64,000 nucleotides of DNA. Source: Escherichia coli. GTDB lineage: Bacteria; Pseudomonadota; Gammaproteobacteria; Enterobacterales; Enterobacteriaceae. Every line of letters starts with the position of its first letter. Position 1 is the stretch's first letter. The translations under genes were made by a program, and so were the position numbers. Positions 1 through 1,287 of the stretch are shown in pieces. Location of the stretch: assembly GCF_016903815.1 (NCBI RefSeq), contig NZ_CP069973.1. One strand, 5' to 3'. The notes beneath the pieces are model-generated. The model did not search any database, was not told where the DNA came from, and saw only the letters and a program-made list of their open reading frames with translations.

Positions 1-47
1 TGAAGGAACGCGACACCCTTCACGGACTTTTGAAGTTGATGCTATGA
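1..47 (+). CDS. 3' end of an ORF truncated by the window edge (...KERDTLHGLLKLML*); candidate toxin partner of the next gene
   Basis: In-frame read from window start ends at TGA 45-47, overlapping the ATG at 44-46 of the next gene (ATGA overlap). Confidence 0.3.
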   Translation, partial: KERDTLHGLLKLML

Positions 48-232
48 AAATCAAAGAAATACGCCGCGCTTCAGGGTTGTCACAATCTAAATTTGCCGAA
101 CTTATTTCCGTAAGCGTAGACACGTTGCGTAACTGGGAGCAGGGGCGACGTTCACCGACTGGGCCTGCAAAGGCTTTGCTGCGAGCGATTGCCAATGATC
201 CGCAACATGTGCTGCAGGCACTTAACCGTTAG
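44..232 (+). CDS. XRE-family helix-turn-helix protein, HigA-like antitoxin candidate (62 aa)
   Basis: ORF track; HTH-like stretch GLSQSKFAELISVSVDTLRNWEQGRRSP; 4-nt overlap with upstream ORF. Confidence 0.55.
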   Translation: MKIKEIRRASGLSQSKFAELISVSVDTLRNWEQGRRSPTGPAKALLRAIANDPQHVLQALNR

Positions 233-316
233 AGGCATGGTTATGCCATACAGAAAGCACCAGCATTCAGAACTCCTATGAAAGCGGCATAGTGCCGCCT
301 GCTCAGGAGTTTTACT

Positions 317-529
317 ATGACCCGTAATCGTGCTGAACGTCGCCATCATATGGCGCGATTAAAAAAAATCCGCTGCCGTTATCGCACTGCAGGCGATGGA
401 AGCAAAAAAGCATCAGGTATTTGCTTTCGTACTCCCTGTATTTGTTCTTGTTGGATGTGTGGGCATCGACGCTATCATAATGGTCCCCGCGTATCGGAAA
501 TTCGTGCAAAAGCACGCTATGCGAATTAA
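317..529 (+). CDS. hypothetical small basic Cys/His-rich protein (70 aa)
   Basis: ORF with GGAG 7 nt upstream of ATG; motif CICSCWMCGH; no family recognised. Confidence 0.35.
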   Translation: MTRNRAERRHHMARLKKIRCRYRTAGDGSKKASGICFRTPCICSCWMCGHRRYHNGPRVSEIRAKARYAN

Positions 530-590
530 GGGAAAATGATGAACTATTTTAAGGAAGCACATTTTTAGAACTCTTAACAGGAGACTAAAA

Positions 591-869
591 ATGTCCACGC
601 TTAATACGCGTAAAGATAGGGATCGTAATGGTAAAGCGAAGCCACATAATCATTCAGGGATCCCAACACTTACAGGTAAATGGCGTCACCCTTCAATGGA
701 TTGTTGGGTAAACTACAGTACACCGGGCGATCATGAATGGAAGCGGCTCTATACTACGCTTCGCCGTCGCGCAGATGATCGACGCCAATGTCATCGGGTA
801 ATGCAGGGGGATGATCCAGAAGGAATCGTCTGGTTCCCGGACTGTTATCCACAAATTTACTACTACTAA
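591..869 (+). CDS. hypothetical protein (92 aa)
   Basis: ORF with AGGAG 7 nt upstream of ATG; no family recognised. Confidence 0.35.
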   Translation: MSTLNTRKDRDRNGKAKPHNHSGIPTLTGKWRHPSMDCWVNYSTPGDHEWKRLYTTLRRRADDRRQCHRVMQGDDPEGIVWFPDCYPQIYYY

Positions 870-1287
870 CAATTAAAGACCGGTTGGTGCGGCACTGACC
901 GGTCAGTTATGAATGGTAGATTTCACCTTAAACCCTGGTGCGGTAAAGCTGCTGACTTTTTCGGGTACACCATCCTGATGAAGCAAATGAACACCCAATC
1001 AAAAAAATATTCTTGAATATAAAATATTTATAGCACCCATAATTCATCCTTATTATTTGTTGTTTCTTTTCTGTAGATGTGTCCCCGCTTAATTAAAAGT
1101 AATAAACCATCCTGGGTTATTACTAAACCATTTTTGAGTAACAATTGAAATAACTGCAACTGTTACATTATCTTTGGATGCCGTCTCGCAAAAACAAAAC
1201 GACATGCAAAAATCCGCTTTTTTTAAATGATTTTTCGGCGTAATTTTCGCACATACATTAATGAGTAATATATGTAAGGTGGTGGTA

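Follow-up and report, generated by a model that had tools for sequence, protein, structure and literature searches.

Positions 317–869 of a 64,000-nucleotide (nt) stretch of the Escherichia coli chromosome (contig NZ_CP069973.1; the whole stretch is referred to below as the window) carry two small open reading frames (ORFs) on the same strand, ORF1 (317..529, + strand) and ORF2 (591..869, + strand), which together constitute a horizontally mobile two-gene operon. Both are real protein-coding genes under purifying selection. Each of them follows a mini-ORF (uORF-A and uORF-B, respectively; uORF, upstream ORF), the end of which is predicted to pair with the ribosome-binding site of the next gene. 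One explanation, to which we would give slightly better than even chances, is that of a mobile operon with a translational relay that encodes partner nucleic-acid-binding proteins.

Coding status of ORF1 and ORF2

The original prediction, made from the sequence alone, described a 70-residue frame rich in Arg, His, and Cys with a motif CICSCWMCGH and a 92-residue frame downstream of it, both with well-spaced ribosome-binding sites, overlapping no other genes, and not assignable to any family. The ORF listing contains the two frames as described, and the unusual composition of ORF1 is confirmed. A Shine-Dalgarno (SD) sequence AGGAG is located 7 nt before each ATG (305..309 for ORF1, as read from the sequence, and 579..583 for ORF2, both + strand), with a GGAG or AGGA box found at the same distance in the orthologues. 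Neither frame overlaps a substantial gene, and the ORFs that overlap them in other frames are closed in the orthologue from Salmonella. A family is likewise lacking for both in Pfam, NCBIfam, PADLOC, and the sequences in the PDB.

The prediction turned on the conservation of the frames in related genomes. Both are kept in Escherichia, Klebsiella, Salmonella, Edwardsiella, Kosakonia, Atlantibacter, Huaxiibacter, and Citrobacter, and the ratio of non-synonymous to synonymous substitution rates (dN/dS; Nei-Gojobori, unsaturated pairs, across genera) is 0.10–0.11 for ORF1 and 0.14–0.23 for ORF2. Since these values are well below 1 and the frames are conserved, ORF1 and ORF2 are not chance ORFs. 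Proteins identical to them are each encoded on at least 1000 public contigs, always under the labels "hypothetical" or "uncharacterized". Carriers of these kinds of protein include Shiga toxin-producing E. coli O103, Salmonella, and Klebsiella plasmids. Three features had escaped the prediction, namely the synteny of the two ORFs as a module, the mini-ORF in the spacer between them, and the predicted conserved hairpins that would lock both ribosome-binding sites.

ORF1 and ORF2 as a mobile pair

A scan of one genome per species yielded 13 loci with a relative of ORF2. ORF1 is located directly upstream and on the same strand in seven of them, is a clear pseudogene in one (L022), and was not detected in five, four of which carry a short form of ORF2 (76–87 residues) without the central insert that is present in the form of 92–98 residues. 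This insert corresponds to residues 19–45 of ORF2 and seems to accompany ORF1. The pair was found in a Salmonella contig that is wrongly labelled as a phage (with 51% identity for ORF1 and 42% for ORF2), in Edwardsiella, Klebsiella spallanzanii, Kosakonia, Atlantibacter, Huaxiibacter, Citrobacter, and Mixta, as well as on Salmonella IncFIB plasmids and at the edges of predicted proviruses. The two genes are separated by 27–66 nt (61 nt in the window) or else overlap. The genes flanking the pair are unrelated from locus to locus, except in the orthologous locus of K. spallanzanii; the only recurrent third gene, encoding a 211-residue unknown protein, is limited to loci of the Edwardsiella/Kosakonia type, and no gene accompanies the pair universally.

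The phage or island origin suggested in the original prediction agrees with the location of the pair in a variable island between fabY and fdhE, and with the matches of ORF1 to phrog_4499 and to T5.055 of T5-like phages. In the window itself, however, ORF1 is not encoded by a virus of bacteria, the locus being a chromosomal island, and the annotation of near-identical loci contains no phage genes near this island. ORF1 is here a cellular or island homologue of a phage family.

Two small, adjacent, co-oriented genes present on islands, plasmids, and integron-like cassette arrays bring to mind a toxin–antitoxin (TA) module, in which structured leaders would keep the level of the toxin low (type I or tightly coupled type II). 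Known TA modules are found nearby (RelE-like/NadS upstream and the ribbon-helix-helix yiiE/yiiF downstream), PIN and Gp49 modules are located beside a distant homologue of ORF2, and the combination of a leader ORF with a structured ribosome-binding site resembles hok/mok. We nevertheless consider this assignment quite improbable. No toxin or antitoxin family in Pfam, NCBIfam, or PADLOC was matched by the proteins, nor in Pfam by the alignment of ORF1 or in Pfam and NCBIfam by that of ORF2; both proteins are basic, and ORF2 is hydrophilic, unlike type I toxins. The pairing is also not that of an obligate poison and antidote, with ORF1 being present alone in hundreds of phages and plasmids and ORF2 being found alone, or beside a disrupted ORF1 (L001, L022), in intact genomes. 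The consensus scan, which cannot exclude an antisense promoter, detected no promoter-like sequence on the minus strand in the module or just downstream of it, the only site being at 1294–1267. Both families do well on their own and match no known toxins or antitoxins, which makes a classical TA pair unlikely.

Several observations on the arrangement of the two families can be added. In Mixta sp. (L016, 2953–3547), an apparent homologue of ORF1 is followed by two tandem copies of ORF2-family genes. The possibility that ORF1 and ORF2 are paralogues was rejected on the basis of the hhalign probability of 0.08%. Rejected as well was T5.054 as a phage counterpart of ORF2, where a short BLAST match (E = 0.005) was accompanied by an hhalign probability of only 2%; a terminator and a promoter lie between T5.055 and T5.054, with neither a mini-ORF nor a hairpin.

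The mini-ORF and predicted hairpin preceding ORF2

The spacer between the two genes contains uORF-B (539..568, + strand), which encodes the peptide MNYFKEAHF and could alternatively start at ATG 536, giving a length of 9–10 codons. An AAGGG sequence located 6 nt upstream of it directly follows the stop codon of ORF1, and the stop codon of uORF-B ends 22 nt before the ATG of ORF2. Hairpin B, predicted by folding (553..596, + strand, with a z-score of −4.62), covers the end of uORF-B together with the SD and AUG of ORF2. In its main stem, CAUUUUUAG (560–568, the last codons of uORF-B and its stop) pairs with CUAAAAAUG (585–593, which includes the AUG of ORF2), whereas the inner stem is formed by CUCUU (571–575) and the SD sequence AGGAG (579–583).

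This arrangement extends through the ORF2 family. The stop codon of a mini-ORF is positioned 19–28 nt, mostly 21–25 nt, before the start of ORF2 in 26 of the 28 loci listed, for which the 90 nt upstream were aligned, and the frame of the mini-ORF relative to ORF2 can be any of the three. The distance would be constant because the end of the mini-ORF and its stop pair with the segment that includes the start of ORF2. The peptides themselves vary. That of K. spallanzanii is the same as in the window, with three synonymous and no non-synonymous differences between the genes, while a divergent E. coli allele (L050) encodes MNYFKDAHF. MYLLQEHF is found in L021 and L028, MRYIQEHW in L004, and MLRHFKQENWDDF in L036, and mini-ORFs ending in ..ALD(T/A)L are present in Pantoea, Mixta, Rouxiella, and a small plasmid. 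In other lineages the mini-ORF is reduced to a start and a stop or to 2–3 codons behind a strong SD (AUG AGG UAA, AUG UAG, AUG ACG UGA), and this start-stop design (AUG UAG, AUG ACG UGA) is also found in distant metagenomic and viral homologues. Leader length in the family ranges from 2 to 15 codons. In one lineage the stop of ORF1 overlaps the start of the mini-ORF as ATGA.

The predicted folding was compared with that at 44 long ORFs of the same window, which served as controls. The mean z-score of the hairpin relative to dinucleotide shuffles is −3.5 in 22 ORF2-family loci and −0.38 in the controls, with values below −2 in 18 of the 22 loci as opposed to 16% of the controls. The start codon is fully paired in 15 of these loci (18% of the controls), and the stop codon in 17. 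In an alignment of nine Enterobacterales sequences, 88.9% of the cells of hairpin B are paired, compared with 77.8% in shuffles (a value reached in 0 of 500), and cells with double changes number 17 rather than 7.5 (also 0 of 500), while slid controls are 28–53% paired. The same hairpin is predicted in distant homologues unrelated in sequence (L012, L013, L035, L039, L041, L042, and L047), and it recurs in about 30 ORF2-family loci with very different sequences. MAFFT/RNAalifold gave no consensus structure for the group with ..LDTL leaders, although folds of single sequences from the same loci show the hairpin. An Rfam cmscan of positions 1–2200 at E ≤ 1 yielded two sub-threshold matches, both of them outside the module (1042–1226).

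These data bear on the possibility that the ORFs are relics, now decaying, of a phage or an island, devoid of present function in E. coli, and that their hairpins are incidental, whether terminator-like, similar to repetitive extragenic palindromes, or due to chance. About 77% of complete E. coli genomes lack the module or have lost it by deletion, ORF1 alleles with frameshifts at a run of eight A residues do exist, and ORF1 is sometimes skipped by the NCBI annotation pipeline (PGAP), all of which would fit decay. Such an explanation is very improbable in view of the range of dN/dS across genera, of the presence of intact alleles on more than 1400 contigs compared with tens for the frameshifted ones, and of the preservation of hairpin B with compensatory changes in unrelated sequences, always over the interval from stop to start. 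In addition, hairpin B is not followed by a U tract and has no match in Rfam.

The beginning of the leader peptide deserves a separate comment. The sequence encoding MNYFK (ATGAAYTAYTTYAAR, 539–553) occurs once in the window, with 0 occurrences expected by chance. The same five residues begin a 10-codon uORF, MNYFKVSRYR, located 52 nt upstream of an ORF1 homologue in Vibrio parahaemolyticus (L009, 4916–4930; L010, 1251–1265). This leader thus precedes opposite genes of the module, ORF1 in Vibrio and ORF2 in E. coli.

The mini-ORF and predicted hairpin preceding ORF1

A comparable arrangement is predicted before ORF1. uORF-A (243..281, + strand) consists of 12 codons, MPYRKHQHSELL, with a GAGG sequence 7 nt upstream; it starts 10 nt after the stop of nadS, and its own stop is found 35 nt before the ATG of ORF1. 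Its last codons, GAA CUC CUA, constitute the anti-SD arm of hairpin A (269..313, + strand), in which the outer stem AACUCCU pairs with the SD region of ORF1, AGGAGUU, and the inner stem, rich in G and C, is formed by GCGGCA and UGCCGC (284–298). The predicted minimum free energy over positions 228–320 is −30.5 kcal/mol (z = −3.26), and z is −3.65 for a 64-nt segment extending from −55 to +8 around the ATG. The 12-codon length is kept in K. spallanzanii (MMNRKFQYSELM) and in the divergent E. coli allele (MTYRKQRHSELM), where the upstream context is different and nadS is missing. Most ORF1 loci share the design of the hairpin with different inner stems, and the Vibrio homologue has a simpler anti-SD/SD hairpin. 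Covariation is modest in this case, with 88.9% of the cells paired compared with 82.3% in shuffles (1 of 500) and 43–52% in slid controls.

A proposed translational relay

The relay that we propose is supported by structure prediction and covariation, and was inferred on account of the translational coupling known from MS2, R1 tap-repA, and IncI2 repR-repA (PMC8053102). As in systems of the tap-repA type, a short uORF with its own SD is present near the start of the downstream gene, and the SD and AUG are predicted to be held in a structure to which the leader contributes the 5′ arm. The SD of each cistron, and for ORF2 also the AUG, would be hidden in a hairpin with a 5′ arm made of the end of the mini-ORF. 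A ribosome that reaches the stop codon of the mini-ORF would melt this arm, upon which either re-initiation or a fresh 30S subunit would start the downstream gene. As long as the RNA is folded, de novo initiation would be inefficient, and ORF2 would be made only upon upstream translation. The order of the relay would be uORF-A, ORF1, uORF-B, and ORF2, possibly with nadS at its head. At the paired loci the mini-ORF starts at the stop of ORF1 or just after it, which would tie the output of ORF2 to that of ORF1 and keep basal levels low.

The same geometry could instead serve an inducible sensor, either by translation attenuation of the erm/cat type or by stalling at start-stop sites, with a ribosome stalled on the leader by a drug, starvation, or limitation of release factors holding the hairpin open and switching on ORF2 and ORF1. 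The 3′ end of the leader is the 5′ arm of an SD-sequestering hairpin, as in attenuation leaders, and motifs in the leader peptides recur beyond the needs of pairing: MNYFK is common to uORF-B of E. coli and the Vibrio uORF, x-F-K is present in the distant loci L012 and L036, and the ..ALD(T/A)L ending recurs in Pantoea, Rouxiella, and the small plasmid. Start-stop mini-ORFs are, moreover, known sites of long ribosome occupancy. On the other hand, many members of the family have mini-ORFs of only 2–3 codons, which would leave no room for a common arrest peptide; the SD is only about 10 nt past the stop, where a ribosome stalled on the leader would cover it, and no function resembling resistance or stress response is apparent downstream. 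A sensor of this kind is an unlikely, though not a remote, use of the leaders.

A relay through mini-ORFs, in a mobile operon that encodes partner proteins, remains our preferred explanation, but a number of results weigh against it. The hairpin is weak in loci of the Edwardsiella type (z from −0.4 to −2.7), as well as in a group of ORF2 relatives that begin with MAHYKRKRPR (z of about −1), and the conservation of the mini-ORF peptides may in part be a mere constraint of base pairing. A uORF-A-like frame ending in hairpin A, sought in the other ORF1 loci, was found only in Escherichia and K. spallanzanii; its absence from other lineages makes it lineage-specific. There are T5-like phages, Vibrio cassettes, and Klebsiella plasmids that carry ORF1 without ORF2, and the short form of ORF2 stands by itself in Pantoea, Mixta, Rouxiella, and small plasmids. 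Each family being also found alone, the partnership is frequent but not obligatory. The module is dispensable, as is evident from deletion remnants and frameshifted alleles. The AlphaFold2 models of ORF1 and ORF2 are both of low confidence and have no neighbors in the PDB. Finally, a search of the literature on T5.055, on the WP accessions of ORF1 and ORF2, and on phrog_4499 yielded nothing relevant; T5.055 is also not mentioned in a paper on a toxicity screen of T5.

Properties and possible roles of the two proteins

ORF1 is a protein of 70 residues (MTRNRAERRHH...CICSCWMCGH...) with an isoelectric point (pI) of 11.1 and a net charge of +16, containing 19 Arg and Lys, 3 Asp and Glu, 6 Cys, and 4 His residues. 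An arginine-rich N-terminal helix (RRHH..R.K..R) is followed by a Cys cluster, TPCxCSCWMCG. Its sole match in the libraries is the PHROG family of unknown function phrog_4499 (hmmscan E = 8e-14, residues 3–67 on profile positions 6–73 of 88), to which T5.055 belongs. ORF1 had no match in Pfam, NCBIfam, or PADLOC, nothing was found at E ≤ 1 in the sequence profiles of the PDB, and the family alignment did not match Pfam. Homologues were detected by tblastn in 446 phage records, essentially T5-like Demerecviridae, where the counterpart, T5.055, is an early-region protein of about 104 residues with an extra acidic tail; a gene of this family is present in all T5-like phages examined. A further 152 records are plasmids, mostly conjugative ones from Klebsiella, and the homologues in Vibrio and Photobacterium are located among small cassette-like ORFs.

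The Cys residues are invariant in the 288 relatives of ORF1. In 37 diverse members, C43, C45, C48, R9, R14, R19, and G34 are invariant, C41, H11, R5, R8, and K16 are nearly invariant, and H10 is likewise nearly conserved. Judging by these residues, C41, C43, C45, and C48 could supply the compact set of four ligands that is found in small zinc-binding proteins. The AlphaFold2 model is all-helical, with a predicted local distance difference test (pLDDT) score of 66, and Foldseek returned 0 matches for it in the PDB. A role for ORF1 as a ribosome factor similar to RMF was considered and rejected (hhalign probability 0.25%, no match to Pfam Ribosome_mod_fac).

The A8 run mentioned above is located inside ORF1 (361–368), and several database alleles are frameshifted at or near this homopolymer; in some of them another shift compensates for the first. 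The complete genome NZ_CP187781.1 (L001) has an ORF1 with a frameshift at the run, where PGAP calls a 73-residue hypothetical protein. These frameshifts could be due to slippage, decay, or sequencing error. The frameshifted alleles read into a 47-residue ORF in an alternative frame of ORF1 (396–539, + strand), which is strongly hydrophobic (..VFAFVLPVFVLVGCVGIDAIIMV..). A hidden membrane peptide encoded there was rejected since the frame is not kept open in the Salmonella orthologue, and this ORF is probably a by-product of the run of Cys codons, rich in TGT/TTG.

ORF2 has 92 residues and a pI of 9.3, with 16 Arg and Lys, 11 Asp and Glu, and no hydrophobic stretch, and belongs to a rare family without a curated model. 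Its conserved N terminus, MS.FNTRKDR..G, is followed by a C-terminal domain with the pattern W.RL.TT.RRA..R.....V..G.DP.G..W....P.IYYY. A word-indexed search returned only close relatives from Escherichia, while 61 relatives at E ≤ 1e-3 were found when 1.84 billion representative proteins were searched exhaustively with a profile. They share a C-terminal block of about 50 residues, P.WW.RL..TRPRR...R......L.G.DPDG..WP...KPh.YYW, and many of them also share MS.FNTRKDR..G. Neither ORF2 nor the family alignment matched Pfam, PHROGs, or NCBIfam, the protein did not match PADLOC, and no PDB sequence was found at E ≤ 1. The AlphaFold2 model has a pLDDT of 66–67, is confident only in the helical region 57–71, and gave 0 matches to the PDB with Foldseek. 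Distant members are encoded on a small Rep3 plasmid, on a plasmid fragment with ParA, PIN, and Gp49, at an island junction at tRNA-Gly, in marine metagenomes, and on one viral contig.

Some features of individual ORF2 relatives hint that a basic N-terminal module in this family is interchangeable or can be fused. Certain single-chain members begin with M(K/S)RSIRRH.., similar to ORF1, or with MAHYKRKRPR... The former were examined as a Rosetta-stone fusion of ORF1 and ORF2, which was rejected as anything beyond a hint (7.4 bits over 14 residues). In a metagenomic locus (L036, 4757–4933), the position of ORF1 is held by an unrelated basic protein of 58 residues that contains a CxxC motif (MHHKRKRSKARRAGCLLCKPNK..), and a mini-ORF of 13 codons separates it from the ORF2 homologue. 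Genes resembling HNH endonucleases follow ORF2-family genes at a distance of a few hundred bases in two settings that are unrelated to each other, namely Salmonella and a group of marine metagenome contigs (L004, 2459–3289; L046, 1616–2209; L048, 7714–8253; L049, 6460–6999), and the marine contigs also have a gene resembling a DEDD exonuclease upstream; these neighborhoods may be a coincidence.

With moderate to low confidence, based on residue composition and genomic context, we propose that ORF1 and ORF2 are small nucleic-acid-binding partner proteins of mobile elements. This assignment follows from the extreme positive charge of ORF1, its arginine-rich helix, and four conserved Cys residues, as well as from the range of carriers of the module (phages, plasmids, cassette-like arrays, and islands), on which TA modules are often close by, combined with its predicted tight gating at translation. 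The two proteins would act together, probably by binding RNA, which is the least certain part of the proposal, and the Cys cluster of ORF1 would bind zinc. They might serve mobile elements in host takeover, in conflicts between elements, or in regulation; were they harmful when made freely, the translational locks would be explained.

We can speculate further that ORF1 and ORF2 are the first representatives of a novel class of mobile-element effectors, which would be small and basic and would target RNA or the ribosome, and the synthesis of which would be licensed by the traffic of ribosomes through the mini-ORFs. The stop-to-start hairpin would then act as a sensor of the state of translation, freeing a harmful protein when translation is perturbed, for instance by phage infection or antibiotic stress; the module would be a new defence, anti-defence, or addiction system, and T5.055 its phage-borne counterpart. 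As a whole, such a scenario is distinctly unlikely.

Genomic setting of the module

Positions 1–1300 of the window match, at least in part, 5385 of the 5426 complete E. coli genomes, with a 100% match from a bovine strain. The full 1300 bases with an intact module are found in 1266 of the 5426. According to the RefSeq annotation of near-identical loci, the order of genes is fabY, an alpha/beta hydrolase (on the minus strand), a 103-residue hypothetical protein, nadS, ORF1, ORF2, yiiE, yiiF or a CopG-family gene, and fdhE. ORF2 is labelled "hypothetical protein" in these loci, whereas ORF1 is annotated in some genomes and skipped by PGAP in others although intact (L002).

In strain SCU-308 (L003), a deletion of about 410 bp (L003 3318–3455 corresponding to approximately 370–780 of the window) fuses codon 18 of ORF1 to the 3′ end of ORF2, which has diverged, and only a decayed remnant of the module is left. 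The same partial match, and apparently the same remnant, is present in other E. coli genomes with nadS, L003 being the one examined. In O157:H7 and BL21-derived genomes the match begins only at yiiE. Its frequent absence, together with the deletion remnants, indicates that the module is accessory and often lost.

The window begins inside nadS, the 3′ part of which (44..232, + strand) encodes an antitoxin-like helix-turn-helix protein matching NCBIfam NadS and Pfam HTH_3. The 103-residue product of the gene upstream of nadS is weakly RelE-like (1–232 of the window and upstream, 2630–3232 of L002), and judging from these similarities the two genes directly upstream of the module look like a TA pair of the HigB/HigA type.

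Downstream, a 12-bp perfect stem-loop, GACCGGUUGGUG / CACUGACCGGUC (878..904, + strand), is present in the centroid structure 9 nt after the stop of ORF2. It has no U tract and may delimit the module on its 3′ side or stabilize the RNA. The 5′ half of its stem (AAGACCGGTTGGT) is retained in the deletion variant L003, in which the 3′ half is lost. A terminator-like site, GCGGTAAAGCTGC followed by TGACTTTTTC (940..962, + strand), was detected by a pattern scan that found three such sites with 1.5 expected, and is weak evidence for a candidate transcript end. Farther downstream, the leaders of yiiE and yiiF share a direct repeat of 79 nt that is 81% identical (1149–1227 and 1588–1666) and an exact 16-nt repeat, ATTCTTGAATATAAAA (1009–1024 and 1519–1534). 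From these repeats, the two ribbon-helix-helix genes seem to have been duplicated along with their control regions.

Comparison with known systems

The module, the signature of the ORF2 family, and the family-wide stop-to-start hairpin with its mini-ORFs appear to be undescribed in the libraries and papers searched, although the proteins are already in the databases as nameless hypotheticals and the regulatory principle is well known. Two anonymous ORFs have thereby become a defined unit, consisting of a syntenic mobile module, a mini-ORF and hairpin before ORF2, and a comparable predicted lock on the SD of ORF1. Translational control as tight as this is typically seen for products that would do damage if made without restraint (toxins, Rep proteins, transposases, and lysis proteins are examples), and the module may therefore reasonably be regarded as a candidate conflict or regulatory system of a new kind. 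It also provides a handle on a conserved early gene of T5 of unknown role. We regard it as a solid lead on a widespread module rather than as breaking a paradigm.

ORF1 can be compared with T5.055 (YP_006883.1, phrog_4499). The alignment covers the first ~67 residues of ORF1, of which about 50% are identical, and the two proteins share both the RRHH..R.K..R helix and the TPCxCSCWMCG cluster. The proteins of T5-like phages differ in their length of about 104 residues and in the extra acidic C-terminal tail (..DEFDGFVGFGEG..DERPDL). T5.055 is placed alone between a terminator and a T5 promoter, without an ORF2 partner, whereas ORF1 of the window is chromosomal and paired. The arginine-rich motifs of the N proteins of lambda and P22, as well as small zinc proteins, resemble ORF1 in composition only, with a basic Arg helix and a Cys cluster, and no match in sequence or fold was found.

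In hok/mok/sok, present on plasmids and islands, a leader ORF is needed for the synthesis of a small repressed protein from an mRNA with a structured leader. The module shares with it the leader ORF, the structured leader, and carriage by plasmids and islands. In turn, ORF2 is a hydrophilic basic protein of 92 residues and not a membrane peptide, there is no match in sequence or in Rfam, and no antisense RNA gene was identified at the module. In attenuation of erm, cat, and cmlA, the 3′ part of the leader ORF makes up the 5′ arm of a hairpin in which the downstream SD is concealed, and the leaders need a drug-dependent arrest peptide. Many leaders in the ORF2 family have only 2–3 codons, and the genes downstream of them are not resistance genes.

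The leaders of plasmid rep genes provide a further comparison. In R1 tap-repA, IncI2 repR-repA, and IncB repB-repA, a leader ORF with its own SD is translated first, and termination is coupled to re-initiation (cf. PMC8053102). In these plasmids the leader overlaps or abuts the start of rep and its translation is controlled by an antisense RNA, whereas in the ORF2 family the stop is positioned 19–28 nt upstream of the start, the predicted hairpin joins the region of the stop to that of the start, the consensus scan detected no antisense promoter, and the products are not Rep proteins. What the two have in common is the location of the downstream ribosome-binding site within secondary structure, as predicted for ORF2, and on the strength of that prediction the module would be a clean natural example of coupling between termination and re-initiation.

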